A stretch of DNA of 63,646 nucleotides, the filler included. It is 12 parts of 12 records of this genome, joined end to end, with 100 filler letters (N's around TTAATTAATTAA, not from the genome) between each part and the next. Parts side by side here need not be neighbours in the genome. Positions count along the whole stretch, not along the records: positions 25,200 to 33,924 come from SRR15195285_7785; 11 more parts are not named here. One strand, written 5' to 3'. Within the stretch, counting starts at the first letter, position 1. Each line of letters opens with the position of its first letter. Both the position numbers and the translations under genes were made by a program. Below are positions 4,132-59,251 of the stretch, piece by piece. Under the pieces are notes generated by a model. The model worked only from the letters and a program-made list of their open reading frames with translations, searched no databases and was not told the DNA's origin.

Positions 4132-4231
4132 NNNNNNNNNNNNNNNNNNNNNNNNNNNNNNNNNNNNNNNNNNNNTTAATTAATTAANNNNNNNNNNNNN
4201 NNNNNNNNNNNNNNNNNNNNNNNNNNNNNNN
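4132..4231. other. Artificial contig linker (44 N + TTAATTAATTAA + 44 N); first of 11
   Basis: Identical 100-bp spacers also at 10881-10980, 17237-17336, 20743-20842, 25100-25199, 33925-34024, 37414-37513, 41052-41151, 45006-45105, 52891-52990 and 59152-59251; the core has stops in all six frames. Confidence 0.99.
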
Positions 4232-10880: not shown

Positions 10881-11070
10881 NNNNNNNNNNNNNNNNNNNN
10901 NNNNNNNNNNNNNNNNNNNNNNNNTTAATTAATTAANNNNNNNNNNNNNNNNNNNNNNNNNNNNNNNNNNNNNNNNNNNNGGACTGATTGTTGGATGAAA
11001 ATGTTGCCCTGTAGGAATTCCCAACCATATTTCGTTTTGCAAAACTGCAGAAAAAGTCTAGACTCCGAAA

Positions 11071-16977: not shown

Positions 16978-17614
16978 ACGATCTCTTGGGGCACCGGTTC
17001 TTGGGGCCACCGGTGGCGCCAATTTGCTGCGCCCGTCCGCTGTGCACCCTGCACCGCGCGCGCCGGCCGACACTCACACTGAAAATTCCAAATTCCAATC
17101 ACAATCAAATGCGGTTGGGAGTGCGCGATAGCTTTTTGTGAAGGGTCTCCGGGAACTGCTCCGATTCTACGCGCCGGATGGGCGCTCCGAGGGGCGGGAT
17201 CGGGCCTCAACACCCATGGGTCGGATCCCTGAGCGGNNNNNNNNNNNNNNNNNNNNNNNNNNNNNNNNNNNNNNNNNNNNTTAATTAATTAANNNNNNNN
17301 NNNNNNNNNNNNNNNNNNNNNNNNNNNNNNNNNNNNTATTTGAATTGACGCGGTGCGCTGCACCGCCGTTATGTAGTAGCGGCTGCCCACTGGGGCAGCC
17401 GTGTTGGCGTCCTGCTCTCTGTCGAGCGTAGTGCGTGGCGCGTCCAGCGTGGGGCGCCACGCCCCCTGGCGCTCCCTGTGTGTGAAGATATCCCTGCCGA
17501 CGGTCGCCACGCCGGTGGCCTGTCGGTAGTATTGCTGGACTGCCCACACGCGGCGGTCCCGCAGATGCAGCTGCCCTGCTTGGAGCGGCCTGCACCCCGG
17601 ATCTACCTGTCGGC

Positions 17615-20710: not shown

Positions 20711-20842
20711 TGACCCTAGTTTCTCCTACGTATAGGATGCTTNNNNNNNNNNNNNNNNNNNNNNNNNNNNNNNNNNNNNNNNNNNNTTAATTAATTAANN
20801 NNNNNNNNNNNNNNNNNNNNNNNNNNNNNNNNNNNNNNNNNN

Positions 20843-23876: not shown

Positions 23877-24860
23877 TCACCCAAACTTTCGCTTGAGCTG
23901 CCTCGCAAGGGCTTGATCCAGCTCAATTCGCTCTGATAGAGCCACGAGCTTGCACACATTTGCAACCACACGGTTTGCTTGCGCCGTCTCTGTGGTGAGC
24001 TTGCTCATCAACGACTCAAGCTCGATGTAGTCTGCGATCAGGTCTTCGATCATGAAGGCCACGTCCTCTGGTAGCCGTTCACCTGCTTGTAGTGTGCCAA
24101 CGCGTTCCTGTAGCGCTTTGAGCTGCTCTTTGGATATTGCGCACTGAGGTTCCAGTTTGGCCTGCATCTCTTCGATCTTGGCATCCTTTGCCCCAAGCTT
24201 TGCCTCCATCTCCTCGCGTTGCTCTCGCATCATTTGGCGCTGTTGCTCGAGCAGCCTCTCGACCATCGCCGACGACTCGAGAGAGCTCTGCATAGTCACC
24301 ATCTGCATGCTCGAAGAGAAGCCTCCGTCGGCCGAGCCTCGCTCTGGTGCGTGAGCAATAGAGGTTGGAACCGGAGCTGACGCTGGTACCTGTGTTCGTG
24401 GTTGTGATGATGGTTCTGGATCCGGCGGTTGCGATGATGGTTCTGGAGCTGGTGGTGCTACAGCTTGCGCCACAGCCGATGCCGTAGTTGGCTTCTCCAC
24501 ACCTGCAGACGGAACTGCCTCGTGGATCATCGGCCGGCAACGGTCGCCAAGCTCGCGCGCCACCACATCCATCTGTGCCTCGAATTTAGCGTCGTCAAAC
24601 TCATTGTGCAGCTCATAGGCCTCCTTGTCTACAATATGCATGCCAAGCCAGCCTGTGGCGAGGTAGCCTGGTTGCACTAGCAGCGGAATGATGTCCACCT
24701 CCGACTTGTGCGCGTACATCGCCTCCAGTCGGCAGCTCGCGCTCTCCTTGTACTCGTTGGTGACGGCAATCAGCACAACGTCCGCTCGTTCGATGGCGCC
24801 CGCCACTACCTCAAGGTCTGTTCCCTTCATGTTCTCCTTGGCGATCCATGTATTGTACCC
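23877..24860 (-). CDS. TIR_2-type TIR domain protein with Pro-rich linker and coiled-coil C-terminus; 5' part missing
   Basis: GYNTWI..ENMKG..AGAIERADVVLIAVTNEYKESASCRLEAMYAH..IIPLL..GWLG; the first TIR strand and helix are absent and a CCCAG acceptor precedes GYNTW. Confidence 0.85.
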   Translation of the reverse strand, partial: GYNTWIAKENMKGTDLEVVAGAIERADVVLIAVTNEYKESASCRLEAMYAHKSEVDIIPLLVQPGYLATGWLGMHIVDKEAYELHNEFDDAKFEAQMDVVARELGDRCRPMIHEAVPSAGVEKPTTASAVAQAVAPPAPEPSSQPPDPEPSSQPRTQVPASAPVPTSIAHAPERGSADGGFSSSMQMVTMQSSLESSAMVERLLEQQRQMMREQREEMEAKLGAKDAKIEEMQAKLEPQCAISKEQLKALQERVGTLQAGERLPEDVAFMIEDLIADYIELESLMSKLTTETAQANRVVANVCKLVALSERIELDQALARQLKRKFG

Positions 24861-25071
24861 TGGGTCGGGTGTCGCCATGCACGGATGATGGTGGTCCTCC
24901 CTCGGATCGCAATCCATACACGCTCGACATTCAACAGACCTTCCGAAGGGTATGGCCAAAGGTCAGGCTGCTCACGATTCGTCACATATGTGGCGTCTCC
25001 CTTGGGAATCTCGGAAGTTCACCCGGACACGGCTGACCAAGATCTTTGCATCGGTCGTGATCAGCCTGGGA

Positions 25072-25099: not shown

Positions 25100-26114
25100 N
25101 NNNNNNNNNNNNNNNNNNNNNNNNNNNNNNNNNNNNNNNNNNNTTAATTAATTAANNNNNNNNNNNNNNNNNNNNNNNNNNNNNNNNNNNNNNNNNNNNC
25201 TGTGAATCTATATGAGTTAATGCATTGATGAAATTGATGTGGGTAACACCTTAATATATAATTTATCCGTCACCGGTTTGCATTCGGCAAATCCGGGGAA
25301 GCATCCTTGATCGCCTGCCTGGGCCAGGGCGGGCCTCACGCTGGTCCCGGGTGCCTCTCTCGATCAGGCCTCACGCGCGTGGAGAACGGCCACCCGACGA
25401 GAATCACCAGTCAGAACCCCCCAGATTTCAGGATGTGCGAACAGGGAGGTATAGAACAGCTGTCCCGCGTCAGTCGGTCCACCAGACTTTTCAGTGAGTT
25501 CTCAGCACCCGGCGAGACTGCACGAAAAATGCGTTGGTCCTCGACGAAACACCCCTCGAGATTCACTATCAATGGGAACTTCCTACTCAGAAATTGGGTG
25601 TCGTTGTATTGAAATCACACTGCGCCCTGTATGCGAGCAATTCGGGATGAGTCAACCGCAGTGCTCTGCAATTCGGCAGTCAAAAAACAGGGCCTTCCCA
25701 ACTGCCATTCCCAGCCGTCAAGGAGAAGAAGCTGCTGGCCAAGGAGAAGGCGGAAGCGCTCCCGATCGTTAACAGCCACGTTGTTGGCAAGAGGTGGAAT
25801 CATAGTGCGTTTTGCTCTTGCTCTTGCGGAGCGTAGCGTAGCGTCCCGAAGAGGGCGTGCGCTCGAGGGGTCTTCCGGCTCGAGGCGAGGCGGTGCGGTG
25901 CTGCAGCGGGGTGGACAGGCGGAGCTGCGCCTTCCAGGCCAAACACACGGTGTAGGGCAGCCAGCCCCCTGCACACACCGTGTGTCTAGCACTGCTCCGC
26001 GCGGCGTGCGGTTTCGGAGCGCCTGGGGATCGGGAGCAAAGAGCGATTTTAGGGCTGGAAGACGGCGGTGGCGGAGGGCATATAGGGACAGCGGAAGGGA
26101 GGGGGGCTGCTGGG

Positions 26115-29100
26115 ATGCCAGGCAAGTCTGCGAGGCGGACGGGCGGCGGGCAGCACGCGCGGACAGGGTACGATGCAGCGAAGAAGCGGCGCGATGCTGA
26201 GGGGGCGCAGCAGGCGGCGAGAGCGCGCTCAGCCAGTGGCGTCAAGCAGTCGAAGCACGCGAGGACGGCGCGCTCGGGTGGGAGCGACGGCAGCCCAGCG
26301 CCGGTCGGGAGGGCGAAGGCGCCTGAAGCACAGCGGGAGTGGAACGATCCCATCTGGCAGGTCCAAGGGCCCGGCGACAGCCCCACGCCCGAAGACACGT
26401 TCGCCCTGCGCGTCGGACGCGTCCTGAAAACGTGTACTGAGAACTGGCCTGAGAATGCCAGAGAGCCGCCGCCGGACAAGAGCGCGTGCGAGAAGCAGCT
26501 GCAAAAATGCGCCGGCCACGCCGGCTTCGCCATCAGCGCGCTGCTGCCCCCTAGTGCTGCTAAGTCGAGCGTCACGGTCGAGGGTTTGAAGGACGAGGAC
26601 TCGCCCGTTCTGCCTGAGTTCATGGTACAGAAGATCAACGATCTCGGTACGCAGCTCGAGGCTCAGCAGAAGGAGTCCGAAGAAATCCATCGCAAATTCC
26701 AGATGGTCGACAAGAGCGAAAACGGGGTAGTCGACGCGAAGGAGTTTGAGACGCTGGTGCGGCAACTGGGCTTAGAGCTTACCGATGAGGAGATCGCGCA
26801 AGCATTCACAGACATCGATGAAAACAGAGACGGATCGATTGACGCGTGGGAGTTCGAGGGATGGGTTAAACAACTTGTGCGCCAGGACGCAAAATATGTC
26901 GAGGGCCTGAGTCGCATAGGGCGGAAAAGAGGATGGGCGAAGATCAAAATTCCACACGCAAGTATGAAGAAAAACGCTTCGGGGAGGCCGTCACGCACGC
27001 AGAAGTTCCTCGCTCCGAAGAAGAAGAAACTGAAGCCAACCGGCAGATACTGGCTGGAAGTTATCGGCAGCAGGCTCTCGATTTATGACAGCGAGGACAG
27101 AGTCGAGGAATTTGCACGACTGCAGCTCTCGGACATGGAGGTTGAAAGTGTCGAAGAAGAGGACCGACAAGCTGACGGATGGGGAGACGAATCTGGCAGC
27201 GAGAAGAAGGGCGCCTTCAATGCGGTTTCTTCTGCGGCTCAAACAGCGGTTACTGCTGCGAGTGCTGCGACGCATGGGTTGCTGCAACACAACGAGGAGG
27301 TCAGACGCACCGTTATTGCTCTGTATTTGCGACTAGAAGGGGGGGGTAGGCATCGGGTGGCAATCGACATCGAACCCGGAAACAGCAGGGAAAGCTCCGT
27401 CAGCTCATGGGTGCAGTCTATGCGTTTGGGGCTGTCTTACCAGGGCCGCCAGCGCAGCGCGAAGCAGCTGTGGGACAGCCTATCCAAGCGTTTGAAGTTG
27501 CTCGTCCAGATGCAGAAGCAGTACGGGGACATCCACGACATGTACGGCTATTCGGAGTCGGATTTCGCCGAAGTTCCCATTCCGAAATATATACGTGATC
27601 CAGACTCGTTGTTTTCAGGCTTCTGGGATCTTCTGCAGCTCGTCATGCTGCTCCTGGTATGTTACTATGTGCCACTTCGGACGGGTTTCGGAGTGACCGT
27701 CGAGCTCTGGTCGTACGATTTCTGGCAGGATGCAGTAATCGATATCTATTTCATCATCGATATTGTCATCCAATTCCGTACGGCGTACTGGAGCCGCTCC
27801 GGTGTCCTCGTTACTGACACAAGAAAGATCCGCAACAATTACTTGAAGGGATGGTTTCTGATCGACTTTGTCTGTGTGCTGCCACTGGGTTACGTCGGCT
27901 ACATCTTTAGTGGAGATGGCGAAAACGGGGGTTTCCGGGCAGTCAAATCTCTTCGCTTGTTGCGAATGGGGAAGATGATGCGGCTGGCCAAAGTTTACAA
28001 GATGCTTCAGAAATACGACAACGTCGCGGAGCTGAAGCCGCTCATTGCGATCTTTGGTCTGATCTTTTTGGTGGCGCTTGCCAGCCATCTTTTGGCATGC
28101 TTTTGGTTCTTGATTGGCGTAAACGACCAGGTGATGGTGCCAGAAAATGGGGATCCGTCGGCAGTAACTGTGCTGGAGGGGTGGGTGAACCAGAAGGCAG
28201 GAGACGATGCGTGGTGGGGGGCCAAGGGCCAGAACGCGACGCTCAAGACTCGCTATGTCACATCGATGTACGGCATTTTTAACGCGCTCGAGAACGGCTA
28301 CACTGACGATGAAAAGCTTTTCGCCATCTGTGCCGAGCTGATTGTCGGTTCTGTGATTTACGGCGGCCTGGCTGCTGTGCTCTCCGCCGCAATGATGGAG
28401 TCGCAGCAAGCTTCAGAGGAATTCAACACAAACTACAAGAAGTTGAAAACCTGGATGACCTCGCGAAAGCTAAAAGGCAGCTATCAGAACATGGTATTAA
28501 AGGCGTACAGCCATAAGTTCAAGGACTCAACCACATTCGATGAAGAGAAGCTGCTAGCGGACTTACCGCCAGCGATGGCATCGGGACTGATGGATAAGCT
28601 GTATGGCCAGTTCATCAATGACGTTCCCTACTTCCGCGGGCTGGACAAAGTTATTCTCATCAAGCTCGCGTCTTCGACAAAGCCCCTTACGGCGGCCAAA
28701 GAGTCGCTGATCATGGAAGAAGGCAAGGTCGGCCACGAGATGTTCATTTTGGTTGAGGGCGAGGTGATGGTTGAAAAGCAGGGAATCGAGCTGGGCTACT
28801 TCCGGAAGCCAGGGTCTTTCTTCGGCGAGAATCCAATCGTTGATCCACGTGGTACCGAACGCCGGACGCGAAGCGTGAAAGCAGTTACAGACTGTTTCTT
28901 GATCTACCTGGAACGGGACACCATCAATTCAATCGCAGATCAGTATCCAGAGCTGCAGGCGAGGCTCCGCCGTTTCCAACGCCTTGGGCAGCGCAAAAGA
29001 CGCGACCACGAAGCTGCTAAACTGGCGCTTGAACAGACTTTGCAACAAACTTTACATGAACCTGACAATGCCAGCAGCGGCGATGGCGGTGAGGACGCTG

Positions 29101-29628
29101 CTGGCGGTGTGCAGCCGAGCACACCACCAAGGGATTCGCCAGATGTTAGTCAAGCTCCAACGAGCCGTGGTTCTGATGGTGGTACAGCATTGCAAACACG
29201 GGAAACGGTAGAAGCATTGCAAACACGTGTTGGGCAGCTCGAGCGTAAGTGCAGCCTCATCATCCAATGGAGCTTCGTTTGCCACAATTCATGATAATCA
29301 CTTACGGCTTTCGTCAGCTCTCCGTTTTGGTTTGTCTTGACTGTTTGGATGAATATTGTACATGCTGCGCGCAGGCATGATGGCAGAGCGCTTCGACAAG
29401 CTAGATAACTTAGTCCAAAGCCTCCTTCAAGCGTCACGGGCAGGCACGAGCGGCGACGCAGACTCATCTAGACCTTCGTCCCCTGGAAGAGGCAGCGGTG
29501 GCCCCGCACTCGCATCCAGGCCGTCGACACCGCCTCGCGTTGCTTCGAGGGTCACAGCTGTGCGAAAGTCTCCGCGCGGCAAAATGCAGGCAGCAGCCTT
29601 CCTAGGATCCATGTCGCACCGAACGTAA
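26115..29628 (+). CDS. CNBD-family (KCNH/HCN-like) 6TM channel with N-terminal EF-hand pair and PH-like domain; atypical pore
   Basis: EF hands DKSENGVVDAKEF and DENRDGSIDAWEF; S1 WDLLQLV; NYLKGWFLIDFV; S4 RAVKSLRLLRMGKMMRLAK; S5 HLLACFW; C-linker; CNBD EMFILVEGEV..FFGE..RRTRSVKA; intron GTAAGT..GCAG at 29245-29374. Confidence 0.9.
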
Positions 29629-30240
29629 GTACAGCTGCCGCTTGCCCTGCGGCGTGGAGTGTTGCAGTTTTGTCGCTGGGTCAGACCCTGCCCCCGCCAC
29701 CGAGGCACTAACCGTAGCACGTTGCACGCACGCAGGGTATCGGCCGCTTCGCCTGGCGCCGTCACGCTGAACTTACAAGAGCACGTAGACGCAAAGAACG
29801 TAGATTAGGTGTGGCGGCCGGCGTTGATGGCTTTCTAGTATGAGAGCATGACGTCGTCGGAGACACGGCCCCACGCTGTCGAAAATTCATTGCCTTGCGA
29901 AAGCGTTCTAATTCTTAGTTGATATCGCCACTCGTAGCCCTCAGTCCTAGCTTCGCCGCCGGTCCGCCCAACGTCAGCCCCAAGGAACACCCTCAGGTTC
30001 TGTCATCGTCCTTCTAGCTAGCGATCGAGGTTCCTGTATATCGCGCGAGTATACCATTAATAGCATGACCTGGTATTCATAGTACCGGTAGGGGCCCAGA
30101 CCCACGGTATCACAATCTGCCGCGCCAGTCCGAATTCGAGTCGGCGCGCCCGGCGCGCCGCGCCGCCGCCGTTTTACGTACTCGATACGTACACCATGCA
30201 CTGCTGCACCGGCGCGGCGGCGGCCGCTCCGAGTCGACCT

Positions 30241-32439
30241 ATGAGCCCCGTGTTGCTGCCGCTGCTGGCGACTGTGGGCACAGTCACCAGCGATTACTAC
30301 ATCGACAGCAACATCGGCTCAGACTCCAACGCTGGCACTGCCGAAGGTCACCCCTGGCGGTCGCTGGCGCGCTTGAACAGTGCACACCTCGCACCCGGCG
30401 AGCAGGTGAAGCTCGCAAAAGGTGGTGTTTGGCGCGAGCGGCTGACTGTCGCAGGTGGTGGAAACGACACGCATGGGCCGGTGGTCTACACGAGCTACGG
30501 AACTCACTCCGACAACAAGCCGCTGCTGCTGGGCTCGGTGGCGGTTGAGGCAGCTGGCAACTGGACCGCAGTGCCTGGCGTGCCCGGTCAATGGCAAACT
30601 TTCCCGAAGCACCTGATTCCAGCAGCTGGGGCGACCGAACTGCTGCACAACGCTGGCTTCGCGGCCGGCAGCTCCTTCTGGGGCCTGTGGAACGAAAATC
30701 CTGAGGGATTCGCCCACGTCAGTGGCAGCGTGTACAGTGGTACAGCTGTTGTGCCACCCACTGCGTCGGGCGCCACGAAATCGTACCAGCTGACCTTCAA
30801 AGGTATGGCTGCTGAACCACAATCTTATACGCAATTTTTCGCACTGAACGTATCCGTCACTAGTGGGCTAAGCTACCGACTGTCATTCTGGGCCAAGTCA
30901 ACGGTAGATCTAAATGTCTCAGACATCTCCGTGTTTGCCATGAAGCCACCGTACATGCCATGCGCCCCAAACTCGGCGCCAGTGCTGTTGAAAGGCAGCA
31001 GTGGTACCGATGGTGGCTGGAACAAATACTCGGTGGATTTCTTAGCCACAGATACCTGCAATCGGCAGCTGGACAACCAGGGACGCGTCACGTGGTGGTT
31101 TCGAGCGGACGAGTCTACTGGAGGTCTGCCTGACAATGCGCAGGTTTGGTTTGCAGGCGCGACACTGAAGCACGTCGTGGAGGAGAACCCCAGTCGCGTG
31201 ACTTTCGAAGAAACTAGCGATGTAGGAAACCTTTTACTATTCTCTACGAGGGCATTAGGCCTGTATTCTGAGCCGGATCGTTACGGCTGGAAGATGTGGG
31301 ATCAGTCTGACGTGAAGAAGAACGGCGACTTCCACTTCGATCGCTACAGCAAACTCCTCACCACATTCTGCGACAAGGGTCCACCCCACGACTGCTGGCC
31401 AGGTGGAATAGAGGCGGCACTCGACATAACTCAGGTCAAAATGGACGGTGCCTCACACGTGGTTGTCGACGGCCTGGCTGTTTGGTTTGGGGCTGCCCAC
31501 GGCATCAACGGTGGGGGCGTAGACAGTGTCGTCGTACGGAACTGCGATTTCGCATGGATTGGTGGCGGGGTCTTGTCATATGATTTTCGCTCTACCGGCA
31601 AGCCCGTGCGTTATGGCAATGGTGTGCAGTGGTGGAACGGCGCTAGGAACATCGAGGTTTACAATAACAGGCTCTGGCAGATCTATGACACTCCACTGAC
31701 CAACCAAGGAGAAAATTGCGTGGCGGGGGGCGGAAGCCAAGAAGGCTGCGCGATGCGCAATATTTCCTACCACCACAATCTAGCGATCAACTCGGGAATG
31801 GCGTGCGTGGAGATTTGGTACTCTGACCCAAATGCGACGATGGGCGAAGTACGATTCGAGAACAACCTCTGTGCAAACATCGGCAACGGTGGGTGGTCGT
31901 CAGCGCAGCGTGAGGACCCAGCAGGTCGTTCTCTGTGTTTCTATCACAACTCGGCGAAGACTACTGCAGTCTCGATCCGCAACAACCTTCTCTACCAGAC
32001 TGTCGGGTTTGAAGCGATGGTCTACGTCTCCGATCGGTGGACGTTGTGGGCAGAGACGGAGCTGCAGTTCGATCACAATGCCCTGTTCAAGACGTCAGCC
32101 ACGCCGCCGCCGCCACCCCCGCACAACGGCAGCCTGGACGAGATGACAGATTATGTCAAACTGATCGGCGCGTCACCTATGCACATTCACTCCGTGGCAG
32201 ACTTTGCACAGTTCAGCAAGAGCCATGGTGGCTCGGGGAGAGCGACCATCTTCGCAGATCCAAAGCTACGGGGTGTGGCGCCAGTTGCAGGGAGCGAAGT
32301 CGACATGCAGAAGTTAACGCACGGCGGATTAGAGGCTGGATCACCGCTGAGAAGCGCAGGCGCTGTTGTGCAGTGGCCGGCTGACTTCAACGGAAAGCCG
32401 ATCCCCACGTCTTCGCCGTCTATCGGCCCATTTCAGTGA
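30241..32439 (+). CDS. Secreted right-handed beta-helix protein with an inserted CBM4/9-like jelly-roll module
   Basis: Signal peptide; YYIDSNIGSDSNAGT..PWRSL; ELLHNAGF..YRLSFWAKS (CBM-like); GAAHGI, VRNCDFAWIGG, RYGNGVQWW, IYDTPLTNQG; C-terminal DFNG..PSIGPFQ; single exon. Confidence 0.85.
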   Translation: MSPVLLPLLATVGTVTSDYYIDSNIGSDSNAGTAEGHPWRSLARLNSAHLAPGEQVKLAKGGVWRERLTVAGGGNDTHGPVVYTSYGTHSDNKPLLLGSVAVEAAGNWTAVPGVPGQWQTFPKHLIPAAGATELLHNAGFAAGSSFWGLWNENPEGFAHVSGSVYSGTAVVPPTASGATKSYQLTFKGMAAEPQSYTQFFALNVSVTSGLSYRLSFWAKSTVDLNVSDISVFAMKPPYMPCAPNSAPVLLKGSSGTDGGWNKYSVDFLATDTCNRQLDNQGRVTWWFRADESTGGLPDNAQVWFAGATLKHVVEENPSRVTFEETSDVGNLLLFSTRALGLYSEPDRYGWKMWDQSDVKKNGDFHFDRYSKLLTTFCDKGPPHDCWPGGIEAALDITQVKMDGASHVVVDGLAVWFGAAHGINGGGVDSVVVRNCDFAWIGGGVLSYDFRSTGKPVRYGNGVQWWNGARNIEVYNNRLWQIYDTPLTNQGENCVAGGGSQEGCAMRNISYHHNLAINSGMACVEIWYSDPNATMGEVRFENNLCANIGNGGWSSAQREDPAGRSLCFYHNSAKTTAVSIRNNLLYQTVGFEAMVYVSDRWTLWAETELQFDHNALFKTSATPPPPPPHNGSLDEMTDYVKLIGASPMHIHSVADFAQFSKSHGGSGRATIFADPKLRGVAPVAGSEVDMQKLTHGGLEAGSPLRSAGAVVQWPADFNGKPIPTSSPSIGPFQ

Positions 32440-32487
32440 CGTACTGGAATAGCTAGATGAACTTTGCCAATTGACCATGAATGTCAT

Positions 32488-33654
32488 TCATGCGTGCATC
32501 TGAAATACATTCTTGTCAAGCAGGTATTGTAGCTTTGGCGCGTATCTGGGGTCGCTCATGAATCTCGTGAAGTAGCCTGGTTGTCCGCACATCTGTAGAA
32601 TCGGCTGAAACTCTGGGTCCGACATGATCTCCTTAACCTTGGGATCGTTCAATGGAAGGGCTGCCTGTGCGGCCGCTTCCTCCTTCGCCTTCTTCTCCGC
32701 CTCCTCTTTCTCTTTGCGATCTTTGTCGTCTGCTATATTCGAGAAGTGATCCCCCATCAAGCCCATGAACTCCCTCAGAAACTCCGTCACTTGCTTGTCA
32801 TTCGCATACTTTTTCGACGCGGCCGCAGAATCCTCCTGCATCTCCTGCATTGCCTTCTGACAGCGTGGGTCCGCAAAGCCACGCATCAGACGCGGGTTAT
32901 TTTGGAATCGGGACATAAAGTCGCCGTTCATCCACTCGCTTTGCTTCTCACTCGCAGCACCGAGAGCCTGCTGCACCTCGTCCAGCTTCCACTGGGACTC
33001 TTGTTGTGCCTCCTTGAACTTCGGCGTCACGACCTCGATTATGTCGTCATCGTCGGCCTTCTTTCCCCTGTCCTTCTTCTTGCCTGCCGAAGACTTCTTC
33101 GCCGCTGCACTGTCCAGGAAACCCTTCTCAAGCGGCTTGCTCATTGTCAGGTTCCCTGGCTTCACGGCCAGCGGCTTCTTCATCCCAGCTATCCTCAGCA
33201 CGAAGCGCCCCTTCTCTGCATCAAAGCGTTGTACAACCCCCTGTTTGCCGTTGTGCTGCGGGGCTCCTTGTAACCCGCCGACCTCCACTGTATCACCCAC
33301 GGCAAACAAGGTGGCAGGGTCCTTCGGCTCCGCCGGCTTGGGCTTGGGCTTGGGCTTGGGCTTAAGCTTCGCAATCAGCGCGTCGTGCGCGGGCGTGCTA
33401 GCCTCCTCGTCAGGCCGCTTCGGCCGAAAGGGATCTTGGATTTTTTCCTCCAGATCGAGCAGGCTGCTGTTGGTGCTAGGCTTCGGCGCGGGTGCAGCAT
33501 CGTCCAGCGGCGGTGGGCCGTCATCTGCGAGTGCGGCAGCAGCGAGCGTCAGCAGCCGCCCCCCCACACACACACACCCAATCGGTGAGCAACGCGACGC
33601 ATGCGTACCATCGAAGTCATCCAGCGGCGGCGGCCCGTCCTCGTCAAAGCTCAT
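32488..33654 (-). CDS. STI1/HOP-DP domain co-chaperone-like protein with a KOW/SH3-like insert (intron 33608-33525)
   Basis: NPRLMRGFADPRCQKAMQEMQED..KKY and DPKVKEIMSDPEFQPIL..FMSDP..KLQYL are STI1-like; VGDTVEVGGLQGAPQHNGKQGVV..GRFVL module; the in-frame 84-nt GTACGC..GCAG intron splits the DGPPPLDD repeat. Confidence 0.75.
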   Translation of the reverse strand: MSFDEDGPPPLDDFDGTHASRCSPIGCVCVGGRLLTLAAAALADDGPPPLDDAAPAPKPSTNSSLLDLEEKIQDPFRPKRPDEEASTPAHDALIAKLKPKPKPKPKPAEPKDPATLFAVGDTVEVGGLQGAPQHNGKQGVVQRFDAEKGRFVLRIAGMKKPLAVKPGNLTMSKPLEKGFLDSAAAKKSSAGKKKDRGKKADDDDIIEVVTPKFKEAQQESQWKLDEVQQALGAASEKQSEWMNGDFMSRFQNNPRLMRGFADPRCQKAMQEMQEDSAAASKKYANDKQVTEFLREFMGLMGDHFSNIADDKDRKEKEEAEKKAKEEAAAQAALPLNDPKVKEIMSDPEFQPILQMCGQPGYFTRFMSDPRYAPKLQYLLDKNVFQMHA

Positions 33655-34024
33655 CGTCGTCCCAGCGCGCACGTGGTCCACGCAGAGGCCTCGCTGCGCC
33701 GTCCTGTGTGCGGTGATAACTACTAGTACGTGTAACAACAACGACGCCAATCCCACGAACGTCCCACCCCGGGCAGGTCGATTCTCATTCATGCAAAATA
33801 AAGCGCCGGAGTGTACACATTCATTTTACATTTCTGGCCAGTCTCCGTTAGGAAATTAGAAAATAGGGTACGATGCCGGATGTATCCTAGATACTGTAAA
33901 GAACCTACCTTAAGGTGTATTGTGNNNNNNNNNNNNNNNNNNNNNNNNNNNNNNNNNNNNNNNNNNNNTTAATTAATTAANNNNNNNNNNNNNNNNNNNN
34001 NNNNNNNNNNNNNNNNNNNNNNNN

Positions 34025-36889: not shown

Positions 36890-37665
36890 ACAATTATGTA
36901 CTTCAATCACTCTTCACTGCTGGGGCGCTGCTTCGCTATTTACATCTTACATGATTATATAGCTTGAAGGGGTGTAGGTCGGCTGCACCGTAGTTGCATT
37001 CATCTAAGGCTGAGCGCAGAGGAGGCCAGCCAGCAGCCCTGTGCTCAGCTAAGGACGGTCTCGCAACCGCCGGGGCCCGCGCCGCCACGCAGCGCGAGCC
37101 GGCCGCCCGCGCGCCCGGGCTACGCTGCCAGGCACGCACATCGCGACGCACGGACGCGGAGGCGCATATATATGATATCAATTTATTGATATTGATATAT
37201 GCACGCACCCGCGGCGGCGGACCGCCGTCGGGTCCGTCGTCGCGCCCCGGATGCATCAACCATCATGCAAGACTGATCCTGTCTTCGGTGCAGTATCGGC
37301 ATACGGAGTACCCAGGTTGAATGAGTGCCATGGCAAAGTGCGTGACCGCGGCGCGTGCGTGCCACGCCGCAGTCGGCGATGCAGACGATGATGCTGCGCT
37401 CGCGTGGGGGCTGNNNNNNNNNNNNNNNNNNNNNNNNNNNNNNNNNNNNNNNNNNNNTTAATTAATTAANNNNNNNNNNNNNNNNNNNNNNNNNNNNNNN
37501 NNNNNNNNNNNNNTGCGTTGCGCAGTTGCCCCCCCCCCCCCCCTTCCCCGCATTTCTCCGTTGGATGCTGCGTCTGCTGCCCTGGTGCACAGCCGACCGC
37601 GCCACCAGCGGTACCGCGGAGTGGCCGAGCATGGGCTTACCGGGTGCGTGTGTTGGATCGTTCAG

Positions 37666-40857: not shown

Positions 40858-41336
40858 CAACACCCGCTCTCCCAAACCCACCGGGCCCTTTCACAGTGCC
40901 ACCACCCTCTCCAGCGCCCCCAAAACCACCCTCAGCGCGGCCATTCTCATCAGATACGCCGTGCAGATGCGGTGCCCATCTTCGTGTGATGACTTGGTAG
41001 TCACAAACGGGGCTACTACAGAATGGTACGATTTTCCGGTACAGACTGCACNNNNNNNNNNNNNNNNNNNNNNNNNNNNNNNNNNNNNNNNNNNNTTAAT
41101 TAATTAANNNNNNNNNNNNNNNNNNNNNNNNNNNNNNNNNNNNNNNNNNNNCGGACTCACCACCGCTCAAATGGCTGTGTGCACGTGACTCCGGGTCGTC
41201 CAGGTGCGGACGCACGCGCGAGCGAGCTACGCCGCGCGCGACCGGCCGGCGCCGGGCGCGCCCGGCGCGGCGCCGGGGACGCCGGTCTCTCCGTGGTCAG
41301 CAGCAGCAGCAGAAGACGCGTGGGAGACACAATACG

Positions 41337-45005: not shown

Positions 45006-45738
45006 NNNNNNNNNNNNNNNNNNNNNNNNNNNNNNNNNNNNNNNNNNNNTTAATTAATTAANNNNNNNNNNNNNNNNNNNNNNNNNNNNNNNNNNNNNNN
45101 NNNNNGTCTCGAGATCGGTGCGATTCTGAATTACTACTCGAGATCGGTCACGATCACAATGCGACGACAGTAATAAATCAGCTCGAGTCGAGATGCAAGC
45201 ATTCTCCGCCATTTCGCACTTGGTTGTGATTGCCAAATCAGAAAATGACTATTTCTGAATCTCAGCCGCCGCAAATCCGGGAATCTTTGAATGCTGGCCT
45301 GCTTGCGCGTGACTCGACTCTCTACTGGTTCCCATACTCCATACTGGGAACGCGGGAGAGGTGATGTACATGATCATGGATGGAACACTTGGTGCGCGAG
45401 TCACGCCGGAGCTTCTTGATTGAAGTACAGCAATAACGAATTCGGTTGAGTTGGAATCAATGCCGTCTCATTCATTCAGGATTCAGTTGTCGGCTTGTCG
45501 CATTCTTGGGTGGAAACAATCGTGAGTTCGTCGCCATTCGGTACCTCTGTACAAGCGCAACATCGGCCATGAACATCGTCACGTGTGCAGCCGCCGCGCG
45601 GAGCCGCCGGGCCCGGAGCCACGCATCCGCGCTGAAGCCATTCGCACGTTCTGCTCGGAGCACAGCCTGAGGGTGTCCAGCAACGTATTCCAGCTGTTCG
45701 CGCCGCAGACGCAAACGTGACACACTGGCAAGACGGTC

Positions 45739-52890: not shown

Positions 52891-52990
52891 NNNNNNNNNN
52901 NNNNNNNNNNNNNNNNNNNNNNNNNNNNNNNNNNTTAATTAATTAANNNNNNNNNNNNNNNNNNNNNNNNNNNNNNNNNNNNNNNNNNNN

Positions 52991-59151: not shown

Positions 59152-59251
59152 NNNNNNNNNNNNNNNNNNNNNNNNNNNNNNNNNNNNNNNNNNNNTTAAT
59201 TAATTAANNNNNNNNNNNNNNNNNNNNNNNNNNNNNNNNNNNNNNNNNNNN

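Follow-up and report, generated by a model that had tools for sequence, protein, structure and literature searches.

A picozoan clade of cyclic-nucleotide-binding-domain channels with a shortened P-loop that lacks the K+ filter signature

The window analysed here, a stretch of 63,646 nucleotides made of 12 parts joined end to end, contains a channel gene in which the P-loop is seven residues shorter than in KCNH channels or K-type relatives and lacks the TxG[YF]G signature. The gene is genuine, and it is transcribed, spliced and conserved; the short loop is a trait of a whole clade, not of one gene, every organism-named member of which belongs to Picozoa. The pore was probably remodelled, not lost. 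Chances are about even that it is a conducting, non-K+-selective cation pore, possibly permeable to Ca2+, with a minimal acidic ring, a reading of conduction and selectivity based on conservation and analogy.

The encoded protein has the domain order EF-hand pair, PH-like fold, S1-S6, C-linker and cyclic-nucleotide-binding domain (CNBD) (Table 1), and the start methionine of exon 1 (MPGKSARRTGGGQHAR) is kept in orthologues P0003-P0005. A metatranscriptome contig (run X12) is spliced across the two GT..AG introns of the gene, with 250 nt on its shorter side at the first joint. RNA contig cover of the gene is partial in X12 and X15, and the gaps were given no weight.

Table 1. Features of the channel gene in window positions
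Feature	Position	Strand	Description
Channel gene	26115-29808	+	1150 aa spliced, three exons
Exon 1	26115-29244	+	Open reading frame; all folded domains inside; RNA contig ends exon at 29244
Small N-terminal helical module, conserved motif GGHAGRA	26400-26543	+	AlphaFold2 pLDDT 74-88
EF-hand pair	26664-26924	+	Two canonical 12-residue loops, DKSENGVVDAKE and DENRDGSIDAWE
PH-like beta-sandwich and C-terminal helix	26913-27449	+	AlphaFold2; disordered insert of ~45 residues
Voltage-sensor domain S1-S4	27609-28001	+	Pfam Ion_trans E 2.5e-16; AlphaFold2 helices; conservation
S4	27924-28001	+	Eight R/K in register, every third position, uninterrupted
S5 and extracellular turret	28035-28241	+	
Pore helix (LKTRYVTSMYGIF)	28242-28280	+	AlphaFold2 helix 236-248, pLDDT 94-97
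Shortened P-loop NALENGYT	28281-28304	+	Stands in for K+ filter and post-filter linker
S6 (DDEKLFAICAELIVGSVIYGGLAAVLSAA)	28305-28391	+	Includes Glu267, invariant Gly276, Ala279
C-linker	28392-28619	+	AlphaFold2; Foldseek matches to HCN, EAG, CNG
CNBD	28620-28946	+	Pfam cNMP_binding E 4.5e-11; phosphate-binding cassette FGE...RRT(R)SV
Intron 1	29245-29374	+	130 nt, GT..AG; joint 29244^29375 in RNA contig, run X12
Exon 2	29375-29624	+	C-terminal tail
Intron 2	29625-29735	+	111 nt, GT..AG; joint 29624^29736, same X12 RNA contig
Exon 3, coding part	29736-29808	+	Stop codon 29806-29808

Because the window is joined from short contigs, the assembly was checked, and no support for an artefact was found. 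Two DNA runs of separate studies, X1 and X2, yield contigs that span the loop without an indel; a synonymous C>T at 28295 is the sole difference between DNA contigs in the loop region, and one RNA contig (X12) covers the loop unchanged. Some part of the gene is present in 19 runs from 15 studies, and at least ten of those listed contain 50% or more of the words sampled. In orthologues of 86-87% identity the 21 residues encoded by 28254-28316 are identical. The concordance of independent DNA contigs from two studies with a spliced RNA contig, the identical residues in the orthologues and the spread over 15 studies leave only a negligible probability that the short loop reflects an assembly error, a frameshift artefact or a pseudogene.

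Strain polymorphism among contigs was used in place of orthologue dN/dS; a metagenome scan with a single protein query yielded no close orthologue loci, and a second scan, with alignment A2 as query, gave 80 loci of which the best was just 38% identical. Over 822 synonymous and 2721 non-synonymous sites, the contigs show 11 differences of each kind, so that pN/pS is ~0.30, a value from only 22 differences in metagenome contigs of mixed strains. The single difference in S5-S6 is synonymous. An earlier note on this DNA had held that the gene does not look like a decaying pseudogene, which agrees with its transcription and splicing, this ratio and the retention of the loop by orthologues.

Positions 28254-28316 of the + strand translate exactly to YVTSMYGIFNALENGYTDDEK, with the codon of the conserved loop Glu at 28290-28292 (residues of the channel core are numbered from window position 27537 as residue 1). 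The TVGY/FG consensus filter of the CNBD-channel superfamily is absent, and the loop reads NALENGYT. MAFFT alignment with a fish KCNH6-like channel (P0027) and a K-type relative (P0022, TISTVGYGDYTAQTNAEK) places a gap of seven columns after FNALE. HMMER alignment with solved hERG chains gives the same seven-residue loss split as 1 + 6 ('nalen.gy......tddek'), in which the losses are the Val, the filter's second Gly and five residues after the filter, and the filter G-[Y/F] may survive. The loss of about seven residues including TxG(Y/F)G, as previously claimed, is thus borne out in its length and in the missing motif, while exactly which residues were lost is made uncertain by HMMER. The Pfam Ion_trans match covers only profile positions 3-157 of 241, i.e. 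S1-S5. In the AlphaFold2 model the loop (pLDDT 94-97) forms a helical turn at 250-253 and S6 begins at 257, leaving an eight-residue link between pore helix and S6; we know of no P-loop channel with so short a link. Because the RNA contig runs collinear through the pore, a hidden intron was rejected as an explanation for the gap; a BacNav-type P2 helix was rejected as none is present in the AlphaFold2 model.

The placement of the loop G-Y on the hERG filter G-F would suit a channel that is still K+-permeable or K+-selective through a remnant E-N-G-Y filter. Such a channel is quite improbable: the loop has neither the Val nor the second Gly, and Gly254 occurs in 32/59 and an aromatic residue at 255 in 23/59 clade sequences, the remnant not being the conserved part of the loop. 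The filter of K+ channels is a stack of four carbonyl sites, for which the loop is too short.

The 16 closest homologues in the database, at 35-87% identity, all have the short loop. Pfam PF07885 matches none of these 16 (P0003-P0018), against 9 of the next 10 (P0019-P0028). Pore modules were typed by HMM-anchored extraction, as classing by regular expression missed many and gave false positives (e.g. P0067). Among 260 aligned modules, 129 have 20 residues and G[YFLW]G between two anchors, and those of the short type, without G[YFLW]G, have 13 (49 modules), 14 (17) or 12 (9) residues. With the pore columns left out, a FastTree phylogeny of 177 rows recovers a short-loop clade of 36 rows (SH-like support 99), and a quick IQ-TREE run on 57 rows places 31/31 short rows to the same side of a branch (SH-aLRT 97). 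K-type protist channels surround the short clade in these trees, and at least seven short-loop clusters occur in one picozoan co-assembly. The proposal of independent evolution is upheld at the level of the clade and not as a one-off, the trees pointing to one origin followed by radiation. Neither a published short-loop CNBD clade nor picozoan channels were found in the open-access articles searched, and the supplementary filter-motif tables of PMC7576140 may hold single cases. An ESM Atlas look-up returned generic CNBD-channel clusters only.

The domains listed in the earlier note are borne out: two good EF hands, a PH-like domain, a regularly charged S4 and an intact C-linker and CNBD. The EF-hand pair is recognised by Pfam (EF-hand_7, E 7e-11) and by structure (VIA-align Z 10-11, rmsd 1.2-2.0 A), and both loops carry Asp, Gly and Glu at positions 1, 6 and 12, predicting Ca2+ binding. 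The AlphaFold2 model of the PH-like domain, a seven-stranded sandwich under a capping helix with strands at 270-419 and the helix at 429-440 (pLDDT 70-85), matches PH domains at Z 9.5-10.5 over 95-106 aligned residues (3hw2_B, Z 10.5; 1fb8_A, Z 10.1; 1eaz_A, Z 9.8). This fold was detected by a wide VIA-align search, Foldseek on the N-terminal model giving marginal E-values only. No Pfam PH match occurs in the N-terminal 482 residues, which match EF-hand families only, while the homologue P0012 carries PF00169. The GGHAGRA module is conserved in P0003-5, P0008, P0011, P0012 and P0017.

In S4, R/K is present at 137, 140, 143, 146 and 149 in 55/56, 56/56, 56/56, 56/56 and 57/57 sequences, respectively, and the clade keeps Phe72 of S2 and the acidic counter-charges Asp65/69/75/110. 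The CNBD cassette aligns with FGE...RRTASV of HCN1, matching it in both the FGE and the Arg-Thr. phmmer matches the channel to HCN1 (1.4e-36 over residues 19-476), and Foldseek retrieves the folds of HCN4, EAG1, hERG and CNGA1 (E ~1e-23).

Across 59 clade members the loop, with the consensus N-A-L-[E/D]-x-x-x-T-x-x-E, is as conserved as S1-S4. Top-residue frequency is 0.64 in the loop, 0.63 in the pore helix and 0.66 in S4, the values for the whole protein and the turret being 0.51 and 0.35. An acidic residue (E/D) stands at 252 in 48/52 sequences, T256 is found in 58/59 and E259 in 59/59, and in S6 G276 is found in 59/59 and A279 in 56/59. Within the clade, the FQKDFGPGT, FEKWSVNT and MSGQWAFT subgroups, 8/36 rows, lack an acidic residue at the corresponding position. 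The loop thus drifted between subfamilies, as would be possible were conduction dispensable, and its conservation could also stem from folding or assembly instead of permeation.

These subfamilies, the missing K+ signature, the link of just eight residues, which might occlude the pore instead of lining it, and the precedent of HCNL1 (PMC7306766) would all fit a central pore that does not conduct, with an HCNL1-like ion or proton path through the voltage sensor, or with the protein acting purely as a voltage, cyclic-nucleotide and Ca2+ sensor or as a scaffold. This alternative is nevertheless unlikely. Loop and S4 are equally conserved here, unlike the HCNL1 pore motif, which is not conserved between species, and the HCNL1 proton path needs a Met gap in S4 (PMC7306766), where positions 140, 143, 146 and 149 are all R/K here. 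The unbroken S4 and the conserved loop therefore argue against an HCNL1-like dead pore. The S2 Phe and counter-charges are intact, the pore-lining Gly276 and Ala279 are near-invariant, and the residues that the loop conserves, being polar or acidic, form no hydrophobic plug. Of the earlier suggestion of a pore-dead or altered-selectivity, HCNL1-like channel, altered selectivity is the favoured part, and the HCNL1-like, pore-dead part is not supported in view of the conserved loop and unbroken S4.

Assembly was modelled with ESMFold2 from four copies of S5-S6, without a supplied alignment. The tetramer reached an ipSAE of 0.55 in three runs, against 0.00 for the best of three controls, a mark reached by 21/30 proteins solved as pairs and 0/23 solved as single chains. 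The runs agreed in at least 75% of their contacts, with a partner pLDDT of at least 64. The pore helix packs against S6 of the adjacent chain, whose residue 249 is contacted by residues 251/252; the loop contacts carry an expected error of ~6 A. As like complexes are solved, the pass may reflect memorised structures, and it shows likeness only.

An obligate partner or modulatory subunit, co-assembling with K-type (TVGYGD) EF-hand-CNBD channels of the same organisms in the manner of CNGB or silent Kv subunits and tuning their pore, is improbable. The adjoining K-type relatives are also from Picozoa (the P0022 cluster, COSAG06; P0135, SAG11), as a partner subunit would call for, but loops that differ by seven residues would be difficult to fit into a mixed fourfold filter. 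In modelling, the homotetramer passes, possibly through memorised structures, and so many paralogues within one co-assembly are unusual for an accessory subunit.

A conducting pore of the favoured kind could have arisen as follows. In the clade ancestor, the K+ signature (TxG[YF]G and post-filter linker) would have collapsed by 6-8 residues, leaving an eight-residue link between pore helix and S6 (N-A-L-E-N-G-Y-T in the present gene). Four subunits would still assemble round a central pore, its narrowest part being a single short ring of loop residues (Asn249, Glu252), buttressed by Glu267 from the S6 of the adjacent subunit and topped by an acidic outer mouth of Asp257, Asp258 and Glu259. The result would be a cation pore incapable of K+ selectivity and probably non-selective or Ca2+/Na+-permeable; single acidic rings work in this way in CNG, BacNav/Cav and TRPV5/6 channels. 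Gating would be by the intact S4 sensor and by cAMP or cGMP at the CNBD, with modulation by Ca2+ through the EF hands and perhaps by lipid through the PH-like domain. More tentatively, the picozoan lineage may independently have turned a K+-channel scaffold into a Ca2+/Na+-permeable one through loss of most of the P-loop, with one conserved Glu/Asp ring kept, this scaffold then radiating into channels gated by voltage, cyclic nucleotides and Ca2+.

In a broad survey of eukaryotic Kv/CNBD channels, departures from TVGY/FG are rare and confined to individual channels, the sole clade-level exception named there being metazoan CNG with TIGE (PMC7576140). The picozoan clade is a second clade-level departure, with more paralogues than CNG (at least seven clusters) and a far more drastic change (loss of seven residues, a link of eight). 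Picozoa are abundant marine heterotrophs that resist culture, and the clade provides a first handle on their signalling. If the pore conducts, it sets the minimum of P-loop required by a tetrameric cation channel and would be a natural experiment in the conversion of a K+ pore to an acidic-ring pore. If the Ca2+/Na+ acidic-ring reading is true, the filter would be the shortest among tetrameric cation channels, and the radiated channels would control the behaviour of these uncultured flagellates. If the pore does not conduct, a conserved, expressed family of pore-less voltage, cyclic-nucleotide and Ca2+ sensors would also be new. Its shortness and near lack of introns make the gene feasible to synthesise and to study by patch clamp.

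Among known channels, the picozoan protein most resembles the KCNH/HCN group, with which it shares six transmembrane helices, an R/K-rich S4, a four-residue S4-S5 link (in the model), a C-linker and CNBD, the pore helix YVT(A/S)(L/M)Y and an S6 start of T-x-x-E-K, its best sequence and fold matches being HCN1/HCN4, hERG and EAG1. It differs in the short P-loop, in the absence of the KCNH filter SVGFG and in its N-terminus, where an EF-hand pair and PH-like fold stand in place of the PAS/eag domain of KCNH or the HCN domain; no PAS/eag domain was found by Pfam in the N-terminal 482 residues, and the fold matches there are to EF-hand and PH. The phosphate-binding Arg-Thr, which is not known from KCNH channels, is kept in the picozoan CNBD.

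Metazoan CNG channels (TIGE) are likewise CNBD channels without K+ selectivity, and the Glu ring of their filter governs cation and Ca2+ handling. Their TIGE(T)PPP filter is not matched in length or sequence. The sole CNG-type pore in the set (P0036, TLTTIGDLPTPETNAE) has 19 residues between the anchors, compared with 13 here, and the clade stands apart in the trees. Judged from its position, the origin of the short loop is independent of metazoan CNG, because the clade nests among K-type protist channels.

HCNL1, a proton channel of zebrafish sperm, is a CNBD-family member without a canonical filter in which the pore motif differs between species (WPFLE and WISTK), a Met breaks the Arg string of S4 and forms the proton path, and cyclic nucleotides have no effect (PMC7306766). 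In the picozoan channel, by comparison, the loop is conserved, S4 is unbroken and the CNBD motifs are intact. The analogy with BacNav, Cav and EukCat, in which the pore helix leads directly into x-L-E-x-x, is functional and not homologous at this level. Filters of these channels are single acidic rings of the TLESW type, and they are followed by a P2 helix, whereas the picozoan model runs straight into S6.

The Pfam Ion_trans match of the channel (E 2.5e-16) was confined to profile positions 3-157 of 241, corresponding to S1-S5, and a MAFFT alignment with the fish KCNH6-like P0027 and with P0022, a K-type relative carrying the TxG[YF]G filter (aligned segment TISTVGYGDYTAQTNAEK), reads FNALE-------NGYTDDEK for the channel, with a seven-column gap. 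HMMER alignment with solved hERG chains split the same seven missing residues 1+6, pairing E-N-(gap)-G-Y with T-S-V-G-F and T-D-D-E-K with T-N-S-E-K, and the start of S6 keeps the conserved T..EK. Both alignments agree with the earlier note that about seven residues are missing; the K+ signature is gone, with the exact identity of the lost residues ambiguous.

The reading frame is open from 25980 to 29294, and the start sequence MPGKSARRTGGGQHAR at the first Met (26115) is kept in the nearest homologues. Among the public runs listed, 19 contain the stretch or part of it (10 of them at least half of the sampled words). They belong to 15 studies and are all metagenomes of marine or seawater origin, six of the runs being RNA libraries. 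Contigs of four runs (X1, X2, X12 and X15) were compared with the window. The loop is spanned by DNA contigs from X1 (28152-28461; no indel, no difference) and X2 (28208-28529; no indel, one synonymous difference, 28295 C>T), and a 1507-nt RNA contig from X12 covers 28141-29244, 29375-29624 and 29736-29888, skipping 130 nt and 111 nt with GT..AG ends, indicating that the channel mRNA exists, is spliced and contains the short loop. The spliced protein has 1150 residues. An artefactual short loop is hardly credible against these indel-free DNA contigs and the same loop in spliced RNA. Differences between contigs (11 synonymous in 822 sites, 11 non-synonymous in 2721 sites) give a pN/pS of about 0.30, a rough value for mixed-strain metagenome contigs, and most of the non-synonymous differences fall in the tails at the two ends of the protein. 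Another X2 contig, partly matching 28078-28270, continues into sequence coding a ...NALDGNG... loop type, indicating a paralogue of another subfamily in the same sample.

The 12 contigs are chained by 11 identical artificial spacers, each N44-TTAATTAATTAA-N44, so linkage of genes across a spacer is not shown; the TIR-domain ORF listed below lies on the neighbouring contig and is thus unlinked to the channel.

Positions of the channel, its neighbours and the spacers along the whole stretch
Feature	Position	Strand	Remarks
Contig carrying the channel	25200-33924
Small helical module	26400-26543	+	5' of the EF hands; conserved GGHAGRA(I/V) in several clade members; pLDDT 74-88
Pore region	28254-28316	+	translates as YVTSMYGIFNALENGYTDDEK
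Intron 2 site	29676		12-nt deletion relative to the window in contigs of 3 of 4 runs (X1, X2, X15)
Stop codon	29806-29808	+
TIR ORF	23877-24959	-	360 aa; Pfam TIR_2, E 4.3e-8; coiled-coil-like tail
ORF	30196-32439	+	747 aa; channel's contig; hydrophobic N-terminus; Pfam search gave zero family matches at E <= 0.01
STI1/HOP DP ORF	32488-33792	-	434 aa; channel's contig; Pfam E 1.5e-17
Spacers	4132-4231, 10881-10980, 17237-17336, 20743-20842, 25100-25199, 33925-34024
Spacers (rest)	37414-37513, 41052-41151, 45006-45105, 52891-52990, 59152-59251

A word-indexed protein search (8000 candidates scored) returned 43 proteins at E <= 1e-3, and the 16 nearest non-self matches (P0003-P0018, 35-87% identical to the channel in the MAFFT alignment) all share the short loop. 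Pfam PF07885 matched none of these 16 vs 9 of the 10 next homologues (P0019-P0028), which read T/A-V-G-Y-G-D. A profile built from 15 family members and run over 1.84 billion representatives matched 85,845 proteins at E <= 1e-3, of which 4,026 reached E <= 1e-30; the best 150 of the 85,845 were retrieved. In 188 proteins (260 pore modules), with the Tyr of the pore helix and the Glu of S6 serving as anchors, 129 modules had 20 residues between anchors with G[YFLW]G, short-type modules without that motif had 13 (49 modules), 14 (17) or 12 (9), and the sole CNG-type pore in the set had 19. With pore columns removed, an unrooted FastTree tree of 177 rows placed all short-loop rows in one group of 36 (SH-like support 99), and an unrooted quick IQ-TREE tree (LG+G4) of 57 hand-picked rows (31 with the short loop, the 18 nearest of the K-type and 8 distant ones) placed the 31 short rows on one side of a branch (SH-aLRT 97); both trees were built without bootstrap.

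Of 25 short-loop clusters whose names were looked up, 11 have a member with an organism name, in every case a 'Picozoa sp.' single-cell assembly of EukProt (COSAG01, COSAG02, COSAG06, SAG25 or SAG31). Two K-type clusters adjoining the clade are also picozoan (P0022 from COSAG06, P0135 from SAG11). Judging from these relatives only, the organism carrying the channel is most likely a picozoan. The co-assembly COSAG02 alone has members of seven short-loop clusters (P0006, P0048, P0051, P0056, P0060, P0065 and P0101), indicating that the clade is a paralogue radiation. Separately, in multi-repeat CNBD channels (P0024, P0025, P0089, P0157, P0173; P0093, P0116, P0151) TVGYGD is replaced in one repeat by TLVVVVIGDV or TLTVVCFGD, with GYG kept in the other repeats of the same proteins; this is a second kind of filter departure, unrelated to the short loop.

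Conservation was taken from a 59-sequence clade alignment (27-86% identical to the channel protein) as the mean frequency of the commonest residue, which was 0.66 in S4, 0.64 in the P-loop, 0.63 in the pore helix, 0.54 in S6, 0.51 in the whole protein and 0.35 in the turret. In core numbering, where residue 1 corresponds to position 27537 of the window, the counts at single positions are Asn249 (45/59), Leu251 (43/59), Glu/Asp252 (48/52; 40 E, 8 D), Thr256 (58/59), Glu259 (59/59), Glu267 (39/59), Gly276 (59/59) and Ala279 (56/59), and poorly kept positions are Gly254 (32/59) and the aromatic at 255 (23/59). The clade thus conserves the acidic residue and its frame rather than the G-Y remnant, and a residual K+ pore is distinctly improbable. 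Subgroups lacking an acidic residue at that loop position account for 8 of 36 clade rows, which weighs against the acidic ring being universal.

The voltage sensor and the ligand-binding domains agree with the earlier note's description. S4 carries eight R/K at every third position (134, 137, 140, 143, 146, 149, 152 and 155), the middle four being invariantly R/K in the clade (56/56 at 140, 143 and 146; 57/57 at 149), which also keeps Phe72 (52/52) and Asp65/69/75/110. The CNBD is intact, with a Pfam cNMP_binding match (E 4.5e-11) and FGE and RRT(R)SV aligned with FGE and RRTASV of HCN1, apart from a three-residue insert. Both loops of the EF-hand pair (Pfam E 7e-11) are canonical, and the pair resembles calmodulin-type pairs (Z 10-11). 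The PH-like domain, modelled at pLDDT 70-85 over residues 267-445 of the N-terminal part with a disordered insert at 354-396, matched PH domains in structure comparison (Z 9.5-10.5), although the Pfam search of the channel protein detected no PH domain.

The AlphaFold2 model of the 498-residue core (59-row alignment; mean pLDDT 87.5, pTM 0.70; 94-97 in blocks spanning 231-260) has a pore helix at 236-248, a one-turn helix at 250-253 (A-L-E-N), coil at 254-256, an S6 beginning at Asp257 and continuing into the C-linker, and a four-residue S4-S5 link; its Foldseek matches were HCN4, EAG1, HCN1, hERG and CNGA1/B1 (E ~1e-23). The tetramer that the earlier note had called for was modelled with ESMFold2 from four copies of S5-S6 (residues 160-300), without the clade alignment, and passed with an ipSAE of 0.55 in 3/3 runs (best of three controls 0.00); the mark set by the tool was reached by 21/30 proteins solved as pairs and 0/23 solved as single chains. 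Partner pLDDT is 64 or higher and the runs share at least 75% of contacts. The pore helix (237-250) packs against the neighbour's S6 (257-268), 251/252 contact the neighbour's 249, 267 contacts its 248/249, and 279 and 283 meet across copies. Solved tetramers exist in the family, so the pass may reflect structures memorised by the predictor, and this model shows likeness, not function. That the channel is an obligate heteromer subunit is improbable.

A survey of the superfamily (PMC7576140) describes, in its accessible text, filter deviations as rare and individual, with metazoan CNG channels the exception, and the open-access literature searched mentions neither a CNBD clade with a short loop nor channels of Picozoa. 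The best fit to the data, held with about as much belief as doubt, is a remodelled, conducting cation pore incapable of K+ selectivity, given a loop that is conserved, polar and acidic and lies near the axis where the subunits meet, an S6 with a conserved hinge glycine and small residues lining the pore, and the intact sensor and CNBD. A non-conducting pore, leaving the protein as a sensor or with conduction through its voltage sensor, is rather unlikely. The earlier note had offered an HCNL1-like dead pore as one option; in HCNL1, according to the accessible text of PMC7306766, the dead pore goes with a replacement motif that is not conserved and with an S4 interrupted by Met, whereas the channel shows neither.
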